Origin: Pseudomonadota bacterium
Lineage (GTDB): Bacteria > Pseudomonadota > Gammaproteobacteria > Burkholderiales > Burkholderiaceae_F
Length of the DNA: 64,000 bases
Direction: 5' to 3'
Assembly (NCBI GenBank): GCA_040752195.1
Contig: JBFMFC010000003.1
Coordinates: 40,110-104,109 of the forward strand
The position numbers and the translations under genes are program-made. Shown here one piece after another: positions 4,156-42,422 of this stretch. A model generated the notes under the pieces. It worked only from the letters and a program-made list of their open reading frames with translations. It was not told the DNA's origin and did not search any database. Position 1 is the stretch's first letter. Each line of letters opens with the position of its first letter.

Positions 4156-4280
4156 GTAACCTCCTGCAGTCAGCGGGTGTTGTCGGGAAGCGGCGCGGCA
4201 GTATGCCAGCGGGCAATCGCCGAGTGGCGGCCCGAGAATCCCCCGATCCCCTGAACGGGGGGCGCGCGCGAATGCGAAAC

Positions 4281-4320
4281 GCGGAGCCGGCGCGCCGGTC
4301 GATCGGCGTGGCGGCTCCGC
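4281..4320 (-). terminator. probable intrinsic terminator downstream of dctP
   Basis: GCGGAGCCG...CGGCTCCGC perfect 9-bp outer stem, followed on the minus strand by GTTTCGCATT (weak U-tract). Confidence 0.45.
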
Positions 4321-4341
4321 GGGTGCGGGTTTACCCGGTGG

Positions 4342-5307
4342 CTACTTCAGCGCCTGCAGCTTGTCGTAGGTCGCCTTGTCCCAGGTCGCGTCCGGCCCGT
4401 TGTGCAGCTTGACCACCGCCGCGCGGAACGGCGCGCGGTCGACGCGAATCACGGTCTTGCCGCGTTTCTCGAACTCGGCGCCGAGCCTCTTCTCGATCTC
4501 GATGATCTCGCCCGTCGCACGTGCAGCGGCCTCCTTCAGCACGGCCTCGAAGATCTTCTTGTCGCCGTCGGACAGCTTGTTCCAGGTCGGGCCGCCGATG
4601 ATCGTGATCAGCGCGTCGGTGATGTGACCGGTCAGCACGATGTACTTCTGCACCTCGTAGAACTTCTTCGCTTCGATCGTCGGCAGCGGGTTCTCCTGCG
4701 CATCGACCGTGCCGTTTTGCAGCGCCAGATACACCTCGGCGAACGCGATCGGCGTCGGATTGGCGCCGACCGCGCGCGGGAACATCGTGTACAGCGGCGC
4801 GTCCGGCACGCGGATCTTCAGCCCCTTCATGTCCTCGGGCTTGTTGATCGGCTTGTTCGACGTCACGTGCCGCTCGCCGTAGTAGGTGATGGCGACGACC
4901 TTGTGGCCGCTCTTCTTCTGGTAGCCGTCGGCCAGTTCGGCGAACAGCGGGCTGGTGGAGAACGCCTTCCAGTGACTGAAGTCGCGGAACATGTACGGCG
5001 CGCCGCCGATGGCGATCGGTCCATACGTGCGGCCGGCGAAGAGCTGTCCCGTGTAGATGATGTCGACCGTGCCGAGCGTGAGTCCCTGGTTGATATCGGT
5101 CTCCTTGCCGAGCGTGGACGCCGGGAACACCTCGATCTGGTAGCGGTTGTTCGTGCGCTTGGCGATTTCGCCCGCGGCCCACAGCGCGGCCGTGTGATAC
5201 GGCTCGGACACTTCGTAGACGTGCGCGAACTTGAGCTTGGTCTGCGCCTGCGCGATTCCGGCGGCGAGCGCCAGCGCGGCGAATGTCGTGAACAGCCTGG
5301 ATCTCAT
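4342..5307 (-). CDS. dctP: TRAP transporter substrate-binding protein (DctP family)
   Basis: Signal peptide; KLKFAH, GLKIRVP, PTPIAFAEVYLALQNGTVDAQENP. Confidence 0.93.
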   Translation of the reverse strand: MRSRLFTTFAALALAAGIAQAQTKLKFAHVYEVSEPYHTAALWAAGEIAKRTNNRYQIEVFPASTLGKETDINQGLTLGTVDIIYTGQLFAGRTYGPIAIGGAPYMFRDFSHWKAFSTSPLFAELADGYQKKSGHKVVAITYYGERHVTSNKPINKPEDMKGLKIRVPDAPLYTMFPRAVGANPTPIAFAEVYLALQNGTVDAQENPLPTIEAKKFYEVQKYIVLTGHITDALITIIGGPTWNKLSDGDKKIFEAVLKEAAARATGEIIEIEKRLGAEFEKRGKTVIRVDRAPFRAAVVKLHNGPDATWDKATYDKLQALK

Positions 5308-11661: not shown

Positions 11662-12705
11662 ATGCGCGCCGTGGAAAAAGTCGATCACGCATCGCTCGCG
11701 AACTGGGGCGCAGCGTGCCTGCGCGCGGTCGGTTGCGGCGACGAGGACGCACGCACGGTCGCCGATGCGCTCGTGCAGACGAGCCTGTGGGGAATCGACT
11801 CGCACGGCGTCGCGCGGCTGCCGCACTACCTCGCGCGCATCCGCGCCGGCTCGATCGAACCGCGTCCGCGCTACACGGTCACGCGAACCGCGCCGGGCAC
11901 GGCGCAGTTCGACGGCGGCCACGGGCTCGGCATCGCCGCGGCATTCGCCGCGATGGCGCTGGCGCAGACGCTCGCGCGCGAGGCGGGCGTCGGCGCGGTC
12001 GGTCTGTGCGAATCGACGCACTGCGGCGCGATCGGCCTGTACACGCGGCAGGCGGCGCGCGACGGGCTCGTCGGGATCGCGTTCACGCACGCCGATTCGA
12101 TCGTCGCGCCGGCACGCGGCACGCGCAAATTCCTCGGCACCAACCCGATCTCGATCGCTTTCCCGCGCGCCGGCGGCGCGCCGCTGTGCCTGGACATGGC
12201 CACCAGCGCGATCCCGTGGAACCGCGTGATGAACGCGCGCCGCGAAGGCCAGCGGTTGCCCGCCGACGTCGCCCTCGACGAGCACGGGCATCCGACGCAG
12301 GACGCGCATGCGGCCGCCGCGCTCGTTCCGCTCGGCGGCGCATCCTACGGCCACAAGGGCTATGCGCTCGCGCTGATGATCGACCTACTGTGCGGGCCGC
12401 TCAACGGCATGGCTTTCGCCGACCGCATCGCGCCGATGTTCGGCGACCTGACGCAGCGGCGCCGTCTGGGCGGGTTGATGATCGCGCTCGACCCCGCGCG
12501 GTTCGCCGGCGGCGCGACGCTCGCACAGCGCGTGGCCGAGGTGGTCGACGCCATCCGCCGCCAGCCCGGCGACGTGCTCTATCCCGGCGAACCCGAGGAA
12601 CGCGCCGAAGCGCAACGGCGCGGCGAAGGCATTCCGATCGAACCCGGGCTGCGCGCCGAGTTCGACGATTGGGCGCGACGCCTCGGCGTCGCACCGCTGC
12701 GATGA
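11662..12705 (+). CDS. Ldh_2 (type 2 malate/L-lactate dehydrogenase, AllD/YiaK/ComC-like) oxidoreductase
   Basis: GIDSHGVARL, HCGA, GTNPI, LDMATS, GHKGYALA. Confidence 0.9.
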   Translation: MRAVEKVDHASLANWGAACLRAVGCGDEDARTVADALVQTSLWGIDSHGVARLPHYLARIRAGSIEPRPRYTVTRTAPGTAQFDGGHGLGIAAAFAAMALAQTLAREAGVGAVGLCESTHCGAIGLYTRQAARDGLVGIAFTHADSIVAPARGTRKFLGTNPISIAFPRAGGAPLCLDMATSAIPWNRVMNARREGQRLPADVALDEHGHPTQDAHAAAALVPLGGASYGHKGYALALMIDLLCGPLNGMAFADRIAPMFGDLTQRRRLGGLMIALDPARFAGGATLAQRVAEVVDAIRRQPGDVLYPGEPEERAEAQRRGEGIPIEPGLRAEFDDWARRLGVAPLR

Positions 12706-14439: not shown

Positions 14440-15192
14440 TCAGCCGCGGCCGACGAACGGCATCTTGGTCGCCATCACGGTCATCGAGAAGACGTTCGCC
14501 TCGAGCGGCAGGCTCGCCATGTGCAGCACGGCATCGGCGACGATCTGCACGTCGATCACCGGTTCGGGCGCAAGCCGGCCGTCGGCCTGCGGCACGCCCT
14601 GCGTCATGCGCGCGGCCATCGGCGTCAGCGCGTTGCCGATGTCGATCTGGCCGACGGCGATGTCGTACTTGCGTCCGTCGAGCGAAGCAGCCTTCGTCAG
14701 CCCGGCGATCGCGTGCTTGCTCGCGGTGTACGGCGCCGAGTTCGGCCGCGGCGCGTGCGCCGAGATCGAGCCGTTGTTGATGATCCGCCCGCCGCGCGGT
14801 GACTGATCCCTCATCACGCGGAACGCCTGCTGCAGGCAGAAGAAGGCGCCGGTCAGGTTCACGTCGATCACCTGCCGCCACTGGCCGACCGACAGATCCT
14901 CGAGCGGAACACCCGGCGCATTGGCGCCCGCGTTGTTGAACAGCAGGTCGACCCGGCCGAAGCGCGCGACCGCCGCGTCGAACAGCGCACGCACCGAGTC
15001 GGACTGGGTCACGTCCGTCGGCACCGCCAACGCGCGCTCGGCGCCCTCGCCGGCGAGCCGGATCGTCTCGTCGAGCGCGGCGGCGCGGCGGCCGGCGAGC
15101 GCGACCCGCCAGCCCGCGCGCAGCAGCGTCAGCGCGACCGCGCGGCCGATGCCGCTGCCGGCGCCGGTGACGATCGCAACGCCGACCGGCAT
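14440..15192 (-). CDS. SDR oxidoreductase
   Basis: [38 protein letters not shown]. Confidence 0.9.
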
Positions 15193-18504: not shown

Positions 18505-19578
18505 TCAGGCCGCGAGGCGTTTGCCGCTCGCGGCATCGAAAACGTGGGCGCGCGCCCGGTCGGGCACGAGCACGATGCGGTCGCCGGGACGCACGTTCGT
18601 CCGGTCGCGGATGGTCGCGGTGATTTCCTGGCCGTTGCAACGGCAGTAGATCTGCGTGTCGGCGCCGGTCGGCTCGACGACGACGACCTCGGCCGCGAGC
18701 CCCTCGCCGCCGCCGACCGCCAGGTGCTCGGGCCGGATTCCGTACAGCACCGGATGCCCCTCCGCGGCGGCGACGTCGCCCGCGAGCGGCACGCGCCCGC
18801 CGTCGGCGAACGCGATCGAAACGGCGCCGCCGTTGCGCCGCACGGTGCCGGGCAGCAGGTTCATCGCGGGCGAACCGATGAAGCCCGCGACGAAGGTGTT
18901 GACGGGCCGGTCGTACAGCTCGAGCGGGCCGCCGGTCTGCTCGACGATGCCGTCGCGCATCACGACGATCTTGTCGGCCATCGTCATCGCCTCGATCTGG
19001 TCGTGCGTGACGTAGATCGACGTCGTCTTCAGCCGCTGATGCAGTTCCTTGATCTCGGTGCGCATCTGCACCCGCAGCTTGGCGTCGAGGTTCGACAGCG
19101 GTTCGTCGAACAGGAACACCTGCGGATCGCGCACGATCGCGCGCCCCATCGCGACGCGCTGGCGCTGCCCGCCGGAAAGCTGGCGCGGATAGCGGTCGAG
19201 CAGCTTGCCGAGCCCGAGGATCTCGGCCGCGCGGCCCACCTGCGCGTCGATCTTCGCGCGGTCGGCGCCCGCCAGCCGCAGCGCGAACGACATGTTGTCG
19301 CGCACCGTCATGTGCGGATACAGCGCGTAGTTCTGGAACACCATCGCGATGTCGCGTTCCTTGGGCGGGACGCGGTTGACGACGCGCTCGCCGATGGCGA
19401 TCTCGCCGCCGGAGATCTCCTCCAGCCCGGCGATCATCCGCAGCAGCGTCGTCTTGCCGCAGCCCGACGGCCCGACGAGCACCGCGAACTCGCCGTCGGC
19501 GATGTCGACGTCGACGCCGTGGATCACGGTCGTTGCGCCGAAACGCTTCACGACGCTGCGTATCGCGACCTTGGCCAT
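18505..19578 (-). CDS. carbohydrate ABC transporter ATP-binding protein (MalK/UgpC-like)
   Basis: [26 protein letters not shown]-terminal TOBE region. Confidence 0.95.
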
Positions 19579-32173: not shown

Positions 32174-35100
32174 ATGCCGAGTCGTTCAAGCGCAACGGTT
32201 GTCGCAGCGGTGCTGCTGCTGTCTGCATCGGCCGCAGCGGCGGCGACGACGGACATCGCAACGGATCCGCTGGCGCGCTCGCAGTCGAGCAGCGTCAAGC
32301 CGAACGTGATGCTGATCGTCGACGATTCGGGCAGCATGGGCTGGCGGCACATGCCCGACTACGTCAACGACACCAACGTCGACAAGCCACGCTGCAGCGA
32401 CTCGACGTGCAGTTCGACCACGTCGACCGGCGTCGAAGGCAATCCGCCCTGGTACGCGTCCGGATTCAACCGCCTCTACTACGACCCGCAGGTCACCTAC
32501 AGCCCGGCGGTCGACGCGACCGGCGCGTCGATGCCCAGCTACGGCGCGCCGTGGACGGCGGTCCCGGTCAACGCGTACGAGACGCCGTCCGCGACGATCA
32601 ACCTCGCGAGCGCGTACCCGGAACTGGTCTACTGCAAGAACGCCAACGACGATCCTTCGTCGGCCAACTGCCGGCGCAACGGCATCGACACGGCCAACCC
32701 GTTCCTCTACAACACGGCTTCCGCGGCCAACGGCTATCCCGATTCGACCGCCAGCGGCGGCTACCGCTTCCCGGTCACGCGGCTCGGCAGCCCCTACTAC
32801 TTCGACATCGTTCCGGTCGAATACTGCAGCGACGAGCGGCTGACGAGTTGCGTCCTTGCGTCCGCTCCGTCCGCGGCGTACCCCTACCCGGCGCCGGTGC
32901 GCTTCTGCCAGAGCGCCTCCGACGCGAGCAGTGCGTCGGCCGTCAGCGGCAACGTTGGCGGTTCGCCGCGCTGCCAGGAGAAGTACGACAGCGCGCACAC
33001 GCGGCCCCGCTACGGCAAGTTCCAGCGCGTCGACATCAAGCCAACCGTTTCCACGTACGGCAACCGGCCGAACCGCACCGACTGCGCTGCGCGGCCCGTC
33101 TGCACCTATGCCGAGGAGATGACCAACTTCGCCAACTGGTATGCGTACTACAGCACCCGGCTGCAGACGATGAAGACCGGCGTGGGCCAGGCGTTCAAGT
33201 CGATCGACGGCCGCTACCGCGTCGGCGCGATCACGATCAGCCCGGGCACGCGCGTCAAGGGATCGAACTACGTGCCGATCGACACGTTCGACGGCATGCA
33301 GCGCGTCGACTGGTACAAGACCTTCTACAAGATGGCGCCGTCCGGCTACACGCCGCTGCGCGAAGCGCTGTCGCGCGTCGGACGCCACTTCGCCGGGATC
33401 ACGTCGGGCATCAACGACGGGATGAACGAGGATCCGGTGCAGTACTCGTGCCAGCCGAACATCGCGCTGCTGACGACCGACGGCTACTGGAACAACAACG
33501 CCGGGCAGCGTCTCGACGGATCGCCGATCGGCAACGTCGACAACGTCGACAGCGGCTACTCGACGCGCGCGTACGGCGCGTACGACGGCGGCAGCGCCAC
33601 CAACGCGAGCGACACCCTCGCCGACGTGGCGCTGTACTACTACCAGACGGACCTGCGCCCGGCCGGGGCGAAGGGCGCACTCGGCACCGACGTCAGCGCC
33701 AACAACGTGCCGACGACGACGAAGGACACGAACCCGGCCCAGCACATGGTCACGTTCACCGTCGGCCTCGGCGTGGACGGGATCATGAAGTACCGGCCCG
33801 ACTACGAGACGGCGACGGTCGGCGACTTCTACAACATCAAGAGCGGCAACAACACGTGCCCGTGGACGAACGGCACCTGCAACTGGCCGAAGCCCGCCGC
33901 CAACAGTCCGACCGCGATCGACGACCTGTGGCACGCCGCCGTCAACGGCCGCGGCCGTTACGTCAACGCGCAGGACGCCCGTTCGCTGTACCAGGGCATC
34001 GCCAGCGCGCTCGCCGAGATCAAGACGGTGACGGGCGCCGCGGCGGCGTCGGCGACCAGCAGCCCGAACGTCAGCTCGACCGACAACGCGATCTTCAGCT
34101 CGACCTATCGCACCGTGAAGTGGGACGGCGAGCTGGTCAAGCAGTCGATCGACATCATCACCGGCAAGGTCCTGCCGACGGTCGTCTGGTCGGCGGCGAC
34201 GCAACTGAACGCTGCGGTGGGGCCGGCGAGCGACAGCCGCACGATCTACACCAACGTCGGCGGCGCGCTCAAACCGTTCGCCTACGCCGATCTCGACGCG
34301 GGCGCGCGCGCGTACTTCGACAACCAGTGCGCGAAACTCTCGCACTGCGCCTCCCTCGCGGCGTCCGACGCAGCGATCGCCAACAGCGGCACAGCGCTCG
34401 TCAACTATCTGCGCGGCCAGCGCGGCAACGAAAACGGCGCCTTCCGGCTGCGCGAGTTCGTGCTCGGCGATCTGGTCGGGTCGCGCCCGGCTTTCGTCCG
34501 CGAGCCGCGCCGCAACTACGGCGACGGTGTGACGCCTTCGTACTTCGACTTCAAGAACGCGAACAAGTCGCGCCAGGCGGTGATCTACGTCGGCGGCAAC
34601 GACGGCATGCTGCACGCGTTCGACGCGGCCACCGGCGCCGAGTTGTGGGCGTTCGTGCCGCGCACGGTGCTGCCGCGACTGCACAGGCTCGCCGACAAGG
34701 CTTACGGCAACGCGCACGAGTTCTTCGCCGACGGCACACCGGCGATCGCCGACGCGTACTTCGGCGGCACCTGGCACACGGTCCTGGTCGCCGGGTTCAA
34801 CGCCGGCGGCCGCGGCTACTACGCCCTCGACGTCACGGTGCCGACGGCGCCCAAGCTGCTGTGGGAGATCTGCGCCGACTCGGCGCTGTGCGTCAACAGC
34901 GAACCCAACCTCGGACTGTCGTTCGGCAACCCGGTCGTGACCAAGCGCGCGTCCGACGGCAAGTGGGTCGCGCTGCTGACCTCGGGCTACAACAACGTGA
35001 CGCCCGGCGACGGCCAGGGCTGGCTGTTCGTCGTCGATCTGGCCACCGGTTCGGTGCTGAACCGCGTGTCGACGGGCGTGGGCTCGACGGCGACGCCGTC

Positions 35101-35944: not shown

Positions 35945-36495
35945 GCAGTCCTGCGCGCCGAGCGCCTGCTGGCGCTGTATCGCACGATGGCGCGCATCCG
36001 CGCGTTCGAAGACGCTGCCGACGAGGCAAGCCGGGGCGGCGTCCAGGTCTGGGGCATGGAGGCGTCCAACACGCCCGCGCGCGTGCGCGGGCCGCTGCAC
36101 CTTTCGACCGGGCAGGAAGCGGTTGCCGCCGGCGTGTGCATCCACCTGCAGCACGAGGACCTGCTCACCTCCACGCATCGCGGACACGGCCACACGCTCG
36201 CCAAGGGCGCGGACACGACGCGCATGATGTGCGAGCTGTTCGGCCGCGCCACCGGCTACAACAAGGGCAAGGCGGGTCGATGCGCATCGCCAACTTCACG
36301 GTCGGCATGCTCGGCGCCAACGGTGTCGTCGCCGCCGGCATCCTGATCGCCAGCGGCGCGGCGCACGCGCTGAAGATCCAACGGCGGCCGCACATCGTCG
36401 CCTGCTTCCTCGGCGACGGCGCGATCAACCGCGGGCCGTTCCTCGAAGGGCTGAACTGGGCGCAGGTGGTCGGGCCGCCGGTGCCGTTCGTCTGC
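35945..36495 (+). pseudogene. acoA: truncated, frameshifted TPP-dependent dehydrogenase E1 alpha (acoA-like)
   Basis: LLALYRTMARIRAFE, LHLSTGQEAV, STHRGHGH; 1-nt deletion at about 36271 in GKGGSM; then GANGVVAAG, GDGAINRG..LEGLNWA; ends at FVC. No in-frame ATG/GTG before the first conserved helix. Confidence 0.85.
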
Positions 36496-36846
36496 GCGGT
36501 CGGCCGGAAGTTCGTGACGATGTGGGGCTACGTCGCCGACCCGCTGATCTTCGTCGTGAACAAGGAGGTCTGGGAGCGCTGGACGCCGGCGGACCGCGAG
36601 ATCGTGCGGCAGGCCGCGATCGACGCCGGCAAGCAGGAGATCGCGATCGCGCGCAAGGGGCTCGACGAGCCAGGGCAGCCGTTGCTGAAGGAAATCGAGG
36701 CCCTCGGCGTCAAGGTCACGCAGCTCACGCCGGCCGAGCGCGAGCAGTTCGTCAAGGCCACGCGAGCGGTCTACGAGCAGTGGAAGAAGCAGATCGGCGC
36801 GGACCTCGTGACCCGCGCCGAGCGGTCGATCGCAGCGCGCAAGTAG
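36496..36846 (+). pseudogene. 3' fragment of a DctP TRAP binding protein fused in frame to the acoA remnant
   Basis: VGRKFVTMWGYVADPLIFVVNKEVW..WTPADREIVRQAA...GVKVTQLTPAEREQF...IGADLV resembles a DctP C-terminus. Confidence 0.75.
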
Positions 36847-37355: not shown

Positions 37356-37918
37356 GGCGCACCTCCCGCGATGGTGTTCGAGCGCGACAAGTCTGGCGCA
37401 AGCGGCGGGCGGGCGCCAGCGGGGCGGCGCCCGCACCCGGCTGCTCGCACGACAACACAGCCCCGCCTCGGCACTGTCCGACAGACTGCGGCGCATCTGC
37501 CTCGCGGCGCTGCGCGAGGCGCCGATAGCCGCGCCGCGCGCGTGTACAGAAGACTCAGCCGCGAAACGTCTGTGCGGCCGGCCTGACCACGCACTGCACG
37601 GCTCGACTTCGCCTGAGCCTCGCACCGAGACTGACGGCCGCATCATGGCACCGAGCGCCCGTGCTGCACCGCTTGACACCGACAACTCCTCCAGCGACTT
37701 CACGTCCGGCGTTTGTCGCGATTGGCCCTCGGCGCGCAGATTCCATGTCTGCGCGGACCGCCGCCAGTCCACGTCAGATGCCGGATACGCGACGGCACGC
37801 TTGCCCAGAGCGTCAGACCGGTCGATCAGTCAGCTTGCGTTGCGGGGCGTCCATATCCGAAGCGTTGGAACGCCCGCCATCTTGACGTACGCGCGGGTTG
37901 TCGATGCGCGACATCAAG

Positions 37919-38179
37919 GCGGTGCTGGGCGCTTGCGGGATCGACGCAGGCGGCGCCAAGCATCTGCCGGGCCTGCGGCCCGGGACCCACGAAGGCGCCG
38001 AACCAACCGTGCCGCGACTTTCCGACCCTCTGCAGGGGCTGAACGCGCGCGGCCTGACCGATCCGCTGCGAGTAGCCGCTGATGGGGCGCCGGGGCTGAT
38101 CCCCGCGGCGCAGGAAGCGCTTCGGCGTTCGTCGCGGCGACGCTGTCTGGCGCACAAGCCGCGCAAACCGCAGGCCAAA
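37919..38179 (+). mobile_element. decayed IS256 (Mutator-like) transposase fragment
   Basis: AVLGACGIDAGGAKHLPGL, L.ARGL.DPL.VAADGAPGL..A and RCLAHK match the IS256 central region (second catalytic Asp and CxxH motif); N- and C-terminal parts missing. Confidence 0.7.
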
Positions 38180-38212
38180 GGACGGCCAGCGGAAAACCTG
38201 ATTCGTCATGTC

Positions 38213-38275
38213 GCCGAACGCGCGCCCTACCCGGCGCGCCGCCCAAGTGCGTCCGCGTTGACCGCGTTGCCATGC
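38213..38275 (-). other. degenerate attC-like site downstream of the DUF2306 gene
   Basis: Minus strand GCATGGC-AACGC-GGTCAAC-GCGGACGC...GCGCGCC-GGGTAGG-GCGCGC-GTTCGGC, 63 bp; attC-like layout with substituted core boxes. Confidence 0.45.
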
Positions 38276-38865
38276 GCGGTGTTGTACAGCCACTCGGCGA
38301 GCGCCAGGTTGGGCGCCCAACACAGCCATGCAATGATGGGATAGGCCACCGAAAACTCGACGCCGGCGGCCATGGAGGCCGGCAGGTAGAGGCGCAACGT
38401 TACCGCGGCAAACGTAAGAGAGAAGTTTCGTACCATCCACTTCCGATGTTCCGCGATAGCACCCCGGCGGATAGCGAGGTAGGCGCGCAAGCCGGTGTAG
38501 AGCCAGAGCACCGCAAGCGCGGCAAAGCCAAGCCGGGCCACCGAACCGCCGAACGCGTACTGGGACATGTAAAGGCCTGATAGGCCGCCGACAAGGACGC
38601 CCACTGCCAGATAGGTACGACCGAGCCAACGGTGCACGTTGACGTTGTTCTGCCTGAGACGCATAGAAAACTGGAACGGGCCGACGGTCAAAGCGACTAT
38701 GGAAGCGAAGGCGTGCGTATAGATGCCGGTGGAATGCGCCAGAAAGTTCGCCTTCATGTCAGGATGCACGAGCGATCCCAACGGCAGAAAGCCATAGGCG
38801 ATCGCCGCATACGCGGCGACGCCGAGTGTGAGCAGGTAGAGCAAGCCATTGCCGATCGAACGCAT
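38227..38865 (-). CDS. DUF2306-like predicted membrane protein
   Basis: HAFASIVAL..GPFQF, HRWLGRTY, HRKWM.R.F..TFAAVTLR; visibly more A/T-rich than its neighbours; start ATG 38865. Confidence 0.82.
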   Translation of the reverse strand: MRSIGNGLLYLLTLGVAAYAAIAYGFLPLGSLVHPDMKANFLAHSTGIYTHAFASIVALTVGPFQFSMRLRQNNVNVHRWLGRTYLAVGVLVGGLSGLYMSQYAFGGSVARLGFAALAVLWLYTGLRAYLAIRRGAIAEHRKWMVRNFSLTFAAVTLRLYLPASMAAGVEFSVAYPIIAWLCWAPNLALAEWLYNTAHGNAVNADALGRRAG

Positions 38866-38885
38866 AGGGGTTCCTTGAGTCGATC

Positions 38886-38946
38886 GCACACGCGCTCCGG
38901 TTCGAGCGACGGCGTAGCCGGTCGCATCAAGCCGGTCGCTGTGTGC
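38886..38946 (-). other. attC-like imperfect hairpin between the SRPBCC and DUF2306 genes
   Basis: GCACAC-AGCGA-CCGG-CTTGA-T-GCGAC-C-GGC-TAC-GCC-GTCGC-TCGAA-CCGG-AGCGC-GTGTGC: outer stem, unpaired 5-nt spacer, two extrahelical bases on the left arm; AAC/GTT triplets not intact. Confidence 0.55.
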
Positions 38947-39364
38947 CTGAACGTTCCTCTGCCTTCGCCTTCAAGCCTCTCAAGGCTTCGGGCAACCCGT
39001 GCTTGACTTGTTTCCCGATTACACGACCGAAGAAGAATGCAAGTGGGCCGGAAAATGAAACACGGTGCAGTACTCGCGTCGCTCCTCCGTCCGGGATCAA
39101 CCGGTGCTCGAACTGCATCCTGCACAGTGGCAATGCCGTTTCGATCGCGAATGAGCGATTCTTCTCGACATGGGTTAGCCGCATCTTGACCAATGGGCCA
39201 TTCCGGGGCTTCAGCTTTCCTTCAGTCCCAGCTACGAAAGCGCCGGCGATGCCGGACTTCTGCACATCGGGGTCCCATTGACACCAACCATCAACGTCTT
39301 CGTAGATCGCATAGATGGTCTCCGGCCTTGCACTGACGACGGTTTCTTCCTGAAACTGGATCAC
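38927..39364 (-). CDS. SRPBCC / polyketide cyclase-like protein
   Basis: ARPETIYAIYEDVDGWCQWDP, F.AGT.G.LKP, LPLCRMQFEH, VSFSGPLA; GTG 39364 with AGGAG RBS; A/T-richer. Confidence 0.82.
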   Translation of the reverse strand: MIQFQEETVVSARPETIYAIYEDVDGWCQWDPDVQKSGIAGAFVAGTEGKLKPRNGPLVKMRLTHVEKNRSFAIETALPLCRMQFEHRLIPDGGATRVLHRVSFSGPLAFFFGRVIGKQVKHGLPEALRGLKAKAEERSGTQRPA

Positions 39365-39662
39365 TGCGGATCTCCTGTCTCGAGCGCACAACCTCGAGTC
39401 GGGCGATGCCGGGGGACGGATAGCCCGGCGAGGCGACCGACGACCTCGCGCGCCAGTTCGTCGGAGAACCCCGCCACGTCTCGCTCTCCGCCCGGGCAGC
39501 TCGGCTTTCCCGAACACGAACCGGGAACCGCCGGACCAGGCGCCCGACCCTCGCCTCGCCCGCCCGAAGCCGCCACATCCGCCGTTGCCCCGGCAGCACG
39601 ATTCGCCGGCGCACAAAGTCTACGAGCGATCCTCAGCCGCCTCCAACGTGTCGAGCGCACGT

Positions 39663-42422
39663 TCAGTGCGCCTCGTCCCAGTTGCTGCCCACGCCGACCT
39701 CGGCGACGAGCCTGACCTTCAGATCGGCCACGCCCGACATCAGCTCGGGCACCTTGGTCTTCACCCGTTCGACCTCGGCCTCGGGGACCTCGAACACCAG
39801 CTCGTCGTGCACCTGCATGATCAGCTTGGTGGCGAGCCGCTCGCGATGCAGCCAGTCGGCGACCGCGATCATCGCGAGCTTGATCAGGTCGGCCGCCGTG
39901 CCTTGCATCGGCGCGTTGATCGCGGCGCGCTCGGCGGCGGCGCGGCGCGGGCCGTTGGGCGAGTTGATCTCGGGCAGCCACAGCCGACGGCCGAATACGG
40001 TTTCGACGTAGCCCTGCCGCCGGGCGAGCGCGCGGGTGGTTTCCATGTAGCGCGCGACACCCGGATAGCGCGTGAAGTAGCGGTCGATGTAGTTGCGCGC
40101 GGCGTCCTTGTCGATGCCGAGGTTCGCCGCCAGGCCGAACGCGCTCATGCCGTAGATCAGGCCGAAGTTGATCACCTTGGCATAGCGGCGCTGCTCGCTC
40201 GTCACCTCGCTCACCGGAACGCCGAAGATCTCGCTCGCGGTGGCGCGGTGCACGTCCTCGCCGGCGGCGAACGCGGCGAGCAGGCCTTCGTCGCCGCTCA
40301 GATGCGCCATGATGCGCAGCTCGATCTGCGAGTAGTCCGCCGAGACGATGCGCGCGTTCGGCGGCGCGATAAAGGCCTCGCGGATGCGGCGGCCCTCCGG
40401 CGTGCGGATCGGGATGTTCTGCAGATTGGGCTCCGACGACGACAGGCGCCCGGTGACCGCGACCGCCTGCCCGTAGCTCGTGTGCACGCGCCCGGTGCGC
40501 GGGTCGACACTGGCCGGCAGCTTGTCGCAATAGGTCGACTTGAGCTTGGCCAGCGCGCGGTATTCGAGCAGCGTCTTCGGCAGCGGGTAGTCCAGTGCAA
40601 GCTTTTCCAGCACTTCCTCGTCGGTCGACGGCGCGCCGCTCGCGGTCTTCTTGACGACCGGCAGCTTGAGCTTGCCGAACAGGATTTCGCCGATCTGCTT
40701 CGGGCTGCCGAGGTTGAACGGCTGACCCGCCAGCTCGTGCGCGCGCGCTTCCAGCTCGGCCATGCGCGCAGCGAGCTCGCGGCTTTGCGCCAGCAGCTTG
40801 TCGCGGTCGATCAGCACGCCGGTTCGCTCCATCTCGAACAGCACGCGCGAGACGGGGATCTCGATCGCCTCGTACACGTAGCGCAGCCGCGCGTCCTCGG
40901 CGATCTGCGGCCACAGCGCGTGATGCAGCGCGAGCGTGACTTCCGCGTCCTCGGCGGCGTAGTCGGTCGCGCGCTCGATCGGCACTTCGTCGAAGCCGAT
41001 CTGGTTGGCGCCCCTGCCGCACACCTGCTCGTAGGTGATCGTCGTGCGGCCGAGGTGGCGCTCGGCGAGCGAATCCATGTCGTGGCTGCGGTGCGGCTCG
41101 AGCACGTAGCTTTCGAGCAGCGTGTCGTGCGCGATGCCCTCCAGCCGCAGGCCGTGGTTGGCGAAGACGTGTGCGTCGTACTTCAGGTGCTGGCCGAGCT
41201 TGCGGTGATGCGCGCTTTCCAGCCACGGTTTGAGCTTCGCCAGCGTGGCATCGAGCGCCAACTGCTCGGGCGCGCCGGGATAGCGGTGTGCGAGCGGGAT
41301 GTAGCACGCGCGATGCGGTTCGACCGCGAGCGAGATGCCGACGAGCTTCGCGGCCATCGGATCGAGCGAGGTCGTTTCGGTGTCGATCGCGGTCAGTTCC
41401 GCGCCGTTGATCCTGGCGAGCCAGGCGTCGAGCTGCGCTTCGGTCAGCACCGTTTCGTAGTGGACCGAAGGCTTGCTCGACTCCGCCGTCGTCCGCGGCC
41501 GCGCGACGGCGGAGTCGAGTCCGCCTGCCGGGTCGGCGGCGGGCGGATCCGACGGCGCGGTTTGGGCCGATTCGCCGAGTTCCTTCAGAAAGCTCTTGAA
41601 TTCCCACCGCGTGTACAGCTCGCGCAGCTTGCTCTCGTCGGGCGGCTGCGCCTGCAGGGCCTCGAAGTCGGGCAGGTGCGCGGCGATATCGCCGTCGGTC
41701 TTCACGGTGACCAGCTTCCTCGCGGTCGGCAGCCACGGCAGCGCGCGGCGCAGGTTCTCGCCGACGACACCGCCGATCTTGTCGGCGTTGGCGATGATCG
41801 CGTCGAGCGACCCGTACTCCTGCAGCCACTTCGCGGCGGTCTTGGGCCCGACCTTGTCCACGCCGGGAACGTTGTCGACCGCGTCGCCGACCAGCGTCAG
41901 GTAGTCGACGATCTGCTCGGGCCGCACGCCGAACTTGGCAACTACGCCGGCAACGTCGAGCTTTTCGTTGCTCATCGTGTTGACCAGCGTGACATGCTCG
42001 TTGACGAGCTGCGCGAGGTCCTTGTCGCCGGTGGAGATCACGGTGCGCACACCGCGCTTTTCGGCTTCGCGCGCGAGCGTGCCGATCACGTCGTCGGCTT
42101 CGATGCCCTCGACCTCGAGCACCGGCCAGCCGAGCGCGCGCGCGGCCTCGCGGATCGCGTCGAGCTGGCGTGCGAGGTCGTCGGGCATCGGCGGGCGGTT
42201 GGCCTTGTACTCGGGATAGATCTCGTCGCGGAAGGTCTTGCCCTTGGCGTCGAACACGCACGCGAGATAGTCGGCCGGGATCTGCTGGCGCAACAGTTTG
42301 AGCATCGACACGAACCCGCGGATCGCCCCGGTGGGTTCGCCGGTCGAAGTCCTTAGATCGGGGAGTGCATGAAATGCGCGGTATAAGTAGCTCGAGCCGT
42401 CGACGAGCAATAGGGTCTTCAC
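39663..42422 (-). CDS. polA: DNA polymerase I
   Basis: LLLVDGSSYLYRAFHA, IEADD, GDKD, LVGDAVDN, DTET 3'-5' exonuclease motif, DYSQIELR, RRYAKVINFGLIYG, QVHDE. Confidence 0.98.
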   Translation of the reverse strand: MKTLLLVDGSSYLYRAFHALPDLRTSTGEPTGAIRGFVSMLKLLRQQIPADYLACVFDAKGKTFRDEIYPEYKANRPPMPDDLARQLDAIREAARALGWPVLEVEGIEADDVIGTLAREAEKRGVRTVISTGDKDLAQLVNEHVTLVNTMSNEKLDVAGVVAKFGVRPEQIVDYLTLVGDAVDNVPGVDKVGPKTAAKWLQEYGSLDAIIANADKIGGVVGENLRRALPWLPTARKLVTVKTDGDIAAHLPDFEALQAQPPDESKLRELYTRWEFKSFLKELGESAQTAPSDPPAADPAGGLDSAVARPRTTAESSKPSVHYETVLTEAQLDAWLARINGAELTAIDTETTSLDPMAAKLVGISLAVEPHRACYIPLAHRYPGAPEQLALDATLAKLKPWLESAHHRKLGQHLKYDAHVFANHGLRLEGIAHDTLLESYVLEPHRSHDMDSLAERHLGRTTITYEQVCGRGANQIGFDEVPIERATDYAAEDAEVTLALHHALWPQIAEDARLRYVYEAIEIPVSRVLFEMERTGVLIDRDKLLAQSRELAARMAELEARAHELAGQPFNLGSPKQIGEILFGKLKLPVVKKTASGAPSTDEEVLEKLALDYPLPKTLLEYRALAKLKSTYCDKLPASVDPRTGRVHTSYGQAVAVTGRLSSSEPNLQNIPIRTPEGRRIREAFIAPPNARIVSADYSQIELRIMAHLSGDEGLLAAFAAGEDVHRATASEIFGVPVSEVTSEQRRYAKVINFGLIYGMSAFGLAANLGIDKDAARNYIDRYFTRYPGVARYMETTRALARRQGYVETVFGRRLWLPEINSPNGPRRAAAERAAINAPMQGTAADLIKLAMIAVADWLHRERLATKLIMQVHDELVFEVPEAEVERVKTKVPELMSGVADLKVRLVAEVGVGSNWDEAH
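41476..41519. repeat. 44-bp near-perfect palindrome inside polA
   Basis: CTCGACTCCGCCGTCG-TC-CGCGGCCGCG-CGACGGCGGAGTCGAG: perfect 16-bp arms around a self-complementary 10-mer. Confidence 0.9.

Follow-up and report, generated by a model that had tools for sequence, protein, structure and literature searches.

A probable fossil chromosomal integron directly downstream of polA, with an integrase stub, an attI-like site and two immobilised cassettes

Two short genes of unusual composition stand directly downstream of polA in a 64,000-nucleotide (nt) stretch of a Pseudomonadota bacterium genome (Burkholderiaceae_F; GenBank assembly GCA_040752195.1, contig JBFMFC010000003.1), and the question raised by this locus is how they came to be there. 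Coordinates given without a contig name are those of this whole stretch, hereafter the window, and minus-strand features are given from high to low. A first-pass annotation, made from the sequence alone, had proposed a decayed integron-cassette array devoid of an integrase, resembling a cluster of attC sites that has no integron integrase (CALIN). We find that the segment from ~37449 to 39662 is very probably a fossil chromosomal integron lying directly after polA, comprising a stub of the integrase gene intI, an attI site and two immobilised cassettes, and cut by insertion sequence (IS) debris. The decayed, integrase-less array is therefore upheld, by homology and not by the covariance-model test that had been proposed for it.

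The first of the two genes encodes a 145-aa SRPBCC protein (39364–38927, minus strand, from GTG at 39364 to TGA at 38927; Pfam Polyketide_cyc2, E = 9e-13) and the second a 212-aa DUF2306 membrane protein (38865–38227, minus strand, from ATG at 38865 to TAG at 38227; PF10067, E = 1e-43), with 61 nt between them. Their G+C contents are 0.564 and 0.621, compared with 0.69 for the window, and at third codon positions (GC3) the values are 0.63 and 0.765, compared with 0.91 for polA and 0.93 for the usp gene. Both genes are foreign by composition, and these figures together with the Pfam matches confirm the earlier description of two short, co-oriented, A/T-richer genes. As is expected of cassettes, each unit contains a single open reading frame (ORF) in the common orientation, no promoter-like site was found, and the 5′ untranslated regions (UTRs) are short, measuring 21 nt from the heptamer GTTGTGC to the GTG of the SRPBCC gene and ~20 nt from the end of the first inverted-repeat element to the ATG of the DUF2306 gene. 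Such an element is indeed present after each gene, as had been annotated; we refer to these as element 1 (61 nt) and element 2 (63 nt).

The 298-nt gap on the minus strand between the end of polA (39663) and the SRPBCC start connects the locus with integrons. A DNA search of relatives, together with direct blastn, matched window positions 39415–39492 at 73% identity to positions 4276–4353 of another contig of the genome, C119, a stretch located between the start of the C119 intI gene and its crossover heptamer GTTAGGT. In a three-way alignment of window 39662–39386 with C119 and with contig C33 of G004, a genome of the same genus, GTTGTGC (39392–39386) falls exactly on GTTAGGT, the intI-start region is kept without its ATG, and the repeat boxes are degenerate. 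Adjoining polA on the plus strand is thus a remnant of the intI 5′ end (39534–39662), amounting to ~130 nt or ~43 codons' worth, whose start codon is gone and which aligns at the nucleotide level with the start of C119 intI (GGGGTCGAGTGCCGGGTTTCAT) and with the G004:C33 stub. It is followed on the minus strand by an attI-like site (39533–39386) bearing two degenerate direct-repeat boxes, GAGGTCGTCGGTC and GGGCTATCCGTC, and ending in the GTTGTGC heptamer, from which the GTG start is separated by a sequence that includes AGGAG. Judged by its homology with the corresponding regions of C119 and G004:C33, an attI site would lie immediately upstream of the first cassette, as in an integron platform. 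The first-pass annotation had correctly located GTTGTGC in front of the SRPBCC start and had regarded it as a cassette core site; its alignment with the attI crossover indicates that it represents the junction between attI and cassette 1, and not merely a cassette core. That annotation had also stated that the window holds no intI. No integrase-like match (TIGR02249) occurs on the contig of the window (C3), in agreement with this statement, but the ~130-nt 5′ remnant has been kept. The locus would accordingly represent an integron that lost its integrase while keeping an intI stub and attI, as opposed to a bare cluster of attC sites.

The elements that follow the two genes can be traced to attC sites in other genomes. 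Element 2 (38275–38213, minus strand; GCATGGC...GTTCGGC) overlaps the last 16 codons of the DUF2306 gene. Homologues of this gene that are 82–92% identical reside in arrays of small co-oriented genes on three unrelated contigs (L131, L132 and L133), where attCs scoring 40.7, 34.8 and 51.3 bits, respectively, with the covariance models described below overlap their 3′ ends. Element 2 aligns to the L131 attC without gaps and with 49 of 63 positions identical (score 84, compared with 14.6 ± 5.9 for shuffled sequences), L131 having GCATAAC AACGC GTTCAAC...GGTTAAC...GTTATGC where the window has GCATGGC AACGC GGTCAAC...GGGTAGG...GTTCGGC. The R″ box has therefore changed from GCATAAC to GCATGGC and the L boxes are mutated, while R′ (GTTCGGC) keeps its GTT. 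The L131 site adopts the canonical attC hairpin fold; the window copy has lost it and forms no single hairpin. The 5′ ends of the DUF2306 cassettes are likewise homologous (TGTGCGATCGACTCAAGGA in the window, TTATGCGCTCAACTCAAGGA in the L131–L133 homologues), which places the boundary between cassettes 1 and 2 at the 3′ end of element 1.

Element 1 (38946–38886, minus strand; GCACAC...GTGTGC) has a predicted fold of −23.1 kcal/mol (z = −2.9), with only 1 of 200 shuffled sequences as stable. The closest homologues of the SRPBCC protein, 72–79% identical, are found in Ignavibacteria and Nitrospirota, and the nearest of them (79%, locus L123) lies in an array, with an attC of 25–28 bits upstream and, after the gene, an attC-like element reading GCACATAAC...GTTAGGC (ACATAAC...GTTAGGC). 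Element 1 aligns to the latter with a score of 45, whereas shuffled sequences give 10.5 ± 6.1 and none of 2000 reach this value; the R″ box ACATAAC has become ACACAGC, and the GTT of R′ has been lost, leaving (C)GTGTGC. The 5′ boundary of the cassette is also shared, with GTTATGC ACCCAAGAAAGGATATCCACA GTG in L123, where GTTATGC is the preceding R′, corresponding to GTTGTGC GCTCGAGACAGGAGATCCGCA GTG in the window, and 35 of 51 positions are identical from the GTT onward. The aligned stretch of element 1 is almost wholly noncoding, and both aligned 5′ UTRs are wholly so. Because the ancestral TAA stop, which lies inside R″ in L123, has become CAG, the window ORF is four codons longer than its homologue (145 versus 141 aa).

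For both genes, then, the gene itself, its 5′ boundary and its attC are homologous to attC-bounded units, which suggests descent from cassettes. Cassette-associated homologues had been proposed as a check on the first-pass annotation, and their complete lack as evidence against it; they occur for DUF2306 in L131–L133 and for SRPBCC in L123. All of these came from a large protein search, as no homologues of P0001 or P0002 were found inside the ~90 integron loci fetched via IntI. Among seven other contexts of homologues that were inspected, none has the two genes side by side; they adjoin only in L130, so they are best regarded as two cassettes, not one. L130 is a 2594-nt contig from another sequencing run (Logan SRR24079483) that carries a near-identical strain copy of the locus, with SRPBCC, DUF2306 at 98%, the transposase fragment and usp; its hairpin 1 differs by one substitution, which breaks a base pair. 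An arrangement in which a single two-gene cassette ends in an attC at 38316–38222, with 16-nt arms, was rejected, since the homologues place the attC at 38275–38213 and the genes occur separately with their own attCs.

Comparison with relatives bears on the polA-adjacent setting of the locus. The polA gene (DNA polymerase I; 42422–39663, minus strand; Pfam DNA_pol_A, 7.7e-164, plus exonuclease domains) is the conserved upstream neighbour, transcribed from the same strand as the cassettes, with 91–94% nucleotide identity to its counterparts in relatives G004 and G005, and its stop codon directly abuts the intI stub. The polA of G005 is 94% identical, and its stop is followed by 194 nt and then by sequence 91% identical to window 37448–36497; G005 therefore has an empty site, from which ~2.2 kb of the window is absent. 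In G004, an intI-start remnant (GAGGGTCGAGTGCCGGGTTT), an attI ending in GTTAGGT and three cassettes directly follow the polA stop, and the first, polA-adjacent attC scores 54.6–56.3 bits. From the polA stop, the GTT crossover is reached after 270 nt in the window and likewise in G004, and the two share the junction between polA and the stub, yet their cassettes are entirely different. The cassettes of G004:C33 (locus L032) encode lipoprotein-like, ABM-like and FGE-sulfatase proteins. Identity between the window and G004 is 60% across the stub and attI, as against 91% in the adjacent polA. Three other members of the genus have no attI or attC within 1.5 kb of polA.

These observations are consistent with a history in which the SRPBCC and DUF2306 genes would have been captured as promoterless cassettes through IntI-mediated attC × attI recombination, followed by the near-total loss of the integrase gene and then by drift of the attC sites in the absence of selection for recombination. 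In a host with 69% GC, A/T positions are expected to turn into G/C, and most changes in core and L boxes would be of this type; the conserved AAC of the R″ boxes now reads AGC in element 1 and GGC in element 2, and the first R′ has lost its GTT. With these core triplets lost, the cassettes are probably now fixed chromosomal genes that even an integrase supplied in trans could no longer excise. Their transcription would most likely occur by read-through from polA, because they are co-oriented with it and neither a promoter-like nor a terminator-like site was found in between.

The attC models provide the principal observations that do not favour a fossil integron. To harvest attC sites beside intI, 80 loci were fetched with an IntI alignment, and strict sites were enriched 26-fold on the cassette side and strand. 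Covariance model R1 was built from 13 short sites and R2, after one iteration, from 137, all 137 of which lie on the expected strand. Both are home-made models of limited sensitivity, as distinct from the curated model of IntegronFinder. Held-out true attCs score 39.7–43.7, 23.0–27.9 and 26.4 bits on C119 and 54.6–56.3 bits in G004. Element 1, by comparison, gives no match to R1 or R2; the best match near element 2 is 7.3 bits (R1) in an overlapping alternative register, which is background; and R2 yields nothing at or above 7.8 bits over 37400–39660. Chance matches elsewhere in the window reach 15.7–19 bits. The highest of these, at 32497–32581 (plus strand, 19.0 bits, R2) inside the pilY1 ORF and at 19207–19266 (plus strand, 15.7 bits, R1), were taken as chance and set the background. 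Weighing on the same side, the element after the SRPBCC homologue in L123 is likewise missed by the models and can be read as a putative working attC from its core sites and array position only; the intI stub is recognisable at the nucleotide level only, with 57–60% identity, and is undetectable at the protein level by tblastn; decay at this locus, as opposed to gain elsewhere, is preferred on grounds of parsimony; and transcription by polA read-through is a prediction.

Neither element has retained the conserved core pair (R″ RYYYAAC nearest the gene, R′ GTTRRRY on the far side), with GTT kept in the second R′ only, and a strict scan for RYYYAAC...GTTRRRY with paired cores, which picks out genuine attCs of C119 and of relatives, recovers none at this locus. 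A relaxed AAC...GTT scan returns 137 matches in the window and is uninformative in such GC-rich DNA. Background scores for both elements were the first of the outcomes that the first-pass annotation had named as contrary to its proposal. The sensitivity of the models is limited, however, as they are home-made and blind to this L123 element, and the cassette origin is upheld despite these scores because of the homologies in attI, gene, boundary and attC. The operational definition of a CALIN calls for at least two attC sites that a covariance model detects and no intI nearby (Cury et al. 2016, PMC4889954); the latter holds here, but attC sites are not detected in 37400–39660, and the locus consequently falls outside this definition.

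Several other explanations of the locus deserve consideration. The two genes might form a horizontally acquired islet unrelated to integrons, with the inverted repeats being terminators, repetitive extragenic palindromic (REP)-like hairpins or chance palindromes. The background model scores would suit such an islet, as would the stable stem-loop of hairpin 1 and the abundance of palindromes in high-GC DNA, of which the 137 relaxed-scan matches are an example. An intrinsic terminator, however, would combine a GC-rich hairpin with a T-run, and no T-run follows element 1 or element 2, nor was any terminator-like site found on the minus strand within 37600–39900; these results and the attC homology led us to reject plain terminators. 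Moreover, the elements have no further copies in the genome, the flank shows homology to a pair of attI sites with which its crossover heptamer lines up, and for both elements, as for the 5′ ends of both cassettes, homologous counterparts exist in attC-bounded cassettes elsewhere. On sequence evidence these homologies already largely refute the islet, which we regard as exceedingly improbable. Scarcely more credible is a still-active array, that is, a true CALIN whose cassettes are excised or reshuffled by an integrase encoded elsewhere and whose odd cores are tolerated variants. GTT is kept at the attI junction and in R′ of element 2 (GTTCGGC), hairpin 1 still folds well, good-scoring attC arrays are present on contigs C38, C41, C25 and C119, and a tolerance for divergent attC sequences is known among integrases (PMC4889954). 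Yet AAC is gone from both R″ boxes, the GTT of element 1 is lost in register, element 2 has no hairpin fold, scores are at background where the other attCs of the genome reach 23–47 bits, no intact intI was found, and the strain contig L130 has the identical arrangement.

The remaining alternatives concern origin and later use. Rather than having decayed in place from a resident integron, stub, attI and cassettes could have come in as the margin of a larger integrative island directed at the polA 3′ end, related islands having been acquired independently by the window genome and G004. On the far side of the G004 array is a ~36-nt copy of the polA 3′ end with two mismatches (locus L032, ~12240–12275 and 14739–14775), resembling the att duplication of an integrative island; the common junction and the 270-nt spacing coexist with different cassettes; and G005 offers a clean empty site, with the three other genus members lacking attI and attC beside polA. 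A repeat of the polA 3′ end was sought in the window and not found, however, an island integrase is absent, and the contrast between 60% identity in stub and attI and 91% in polA would fit long vertical neutral decay equally well. We consider this origin doubtful, though with an appreciable chance of being correct; it bears on origin only and is compatible with a fossil integron. If instead the junction is ancestral, the different cassettes of the window and G004 would imply cassette turnover at an attI without its own integrase. The orphan attI might then have stayed in use after the loss of its intI, served in trans by integrases elsewhere, which we judge to be rather unlikely. In a lesser variant of this possibility, the hairpin of element 1 may have been retained as an intercistronic RNA hairpin; the related attC-like element of L123 folds with −12.7 kcal/mol, compared with −23 for element 1.

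The fossil integron beside polA does not stand alone, in that the genome contains at least three integron platforms, with every integrase damaged. A genome search for intI, as had been suggested in the first-pass annotation, recovered remnants on C119 and C25, both of them defective, and no intact intI, as a functional platform would carry, was found in the 96.9%-complete assembly. On C119, TIGR02249 matches in two frames, at model positions 1–63 (62.8 bits) and 153–315 (195 bits), and tblastn with intact IntI proteins of relatives identifies a frameshifted pseudogene from which aa 59–152 are missing. In the C119 integron (locus L122, 1–5154), the start of intI is accompanied by an attI in which two AGGTTATCCGTC boxes occur together with the crossover GTTAGGT, and by low-GC cassettes comprising one small ORF, a methyltransferase gene and a GNAT gene, with canonical attCs ACCTAAC...GTTGGGC and GCCCAAC...GTTAGGC of 23–44 bits; a further attC (222–145) scores 26.4 bits, and an intact IS256-family IS with a 9-bp overlap occupies 741–2159. 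The third platform, at ~26900–28450 of C25, retains IntI residues 1–81 only, 86% identical to the IntI of G006. Upstream lies a LexA-box-like palindrome, CTGT-N8-ACAG, and it carries two low-GC cassettes with canonical attCs (27006–26926, 28.6 bits). Pairs of attC sites scoring 35–47 bits also occur near the starts of C38 (1185–1309 and 2517–2585) and C41 (947–1001 and 1678–1758), and probably stem from cassette arrays that the assembly has split.

Considered against known systems, the locus is an ordinary genomic fossil of a kind already described, being neither a CALIN by definition nor a complete integron. Chromosomal integrons with inactivated intI genes and decaying arrays have been described for Xanthomonas. 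Like those, the present locus is sedentary and adjacent to a housekeeping gene, its intI has been inactivated (by deletion or frameshift in such integrons), and the cassettes vary between related genomes; it differs in that only ~130 nt of intI and two cassettes are left and that the attC core triplets are lost. CALINs are well documented, as are integrons whose intI is a pseudogene, and loss of intI and IS-mediated rearrangement are among the possible origins of CALINs (PMC4889954). The locus resembles a CALIN in having co-oriented, promoterless cassettes beside IS debris with no integrase gene nearby, but its attCs are at background with the home-made models, and an attI and an intI stub persist in it, neither of which is required of a bare CALIN. 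The C119 integron and the G004 array both share the homologous attI and intI start, together with a downstream repeated element in C119 and with the polA junction and 270-nt spacing in G004. Unlike the window, both have the canonical GTTAGGT, attCs of 23–56 bits and other cassettes, and most of intI survives in C119, in the form of a pseudogene. Although the current understanding of integrons is unchanged by this locus, it illustrates that cassette arrays can outlive their recognisability, as the model test fails even where an integron origin is clear by homology, and counts of integron-derived genes that rely on such models will probably overlook loci of this type. It also offers a dated-looking snapshot of cassette domestication, in which the integrase is reduced to a stub, the core triplets are lost, and a stop codon within R″ has mutated so that the ORF has grown.

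Mobile-element activity has cut short the distal end of the array. Beyond element 2, the plus strand bears part of the interior of a transposase gene of the IS256/Mutator family (37916–38164; Pfam Transposase_mut 181–259 of 379, E = 1.2e-4; tblastn to aa 189–297 of the C119 transposase, E = 0.002), and this is followed on the minus strand by a piece of a repeated element (37870–37471) that also comes after the GNAT cassette in the C119 integron. Over ~390 nt (37860–37471), this piece is 74% identical to C119 positions 524–740 plus 2160–2342, the C119 copy being split by the intact IS; further copies occur in G001 (C107) and at several contig ends of G027. The first 59 nt of the piece (37870–37812) may represent an attC remnant, scoring 12.4 bits with R1 on the opposite strand only and giving no match with R2. 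Some relatives of IS110 target attC sites. Assignment of the repeat to the IS110 family was considered, as the start of an opposite-strand ORF in C119 looks IS110-like by eye, but neither Pfam nor tblastn gave support, and we make no such claim. Homology to G005 resumes in the conserved right flank (37448–36918, minus strand), which contains the usp gene (Usp Pfam, 4.6e-27) and its upstream region. Farther on, between pilY1 and usp, partial Pfam matches to E1_dh (profile positions 78–159 of 300) and DctP (195–285 of 286) occur within a spurious long ORF at 36262–36790; these are probably gene fragments, and the region is kept in both G004 and G005.

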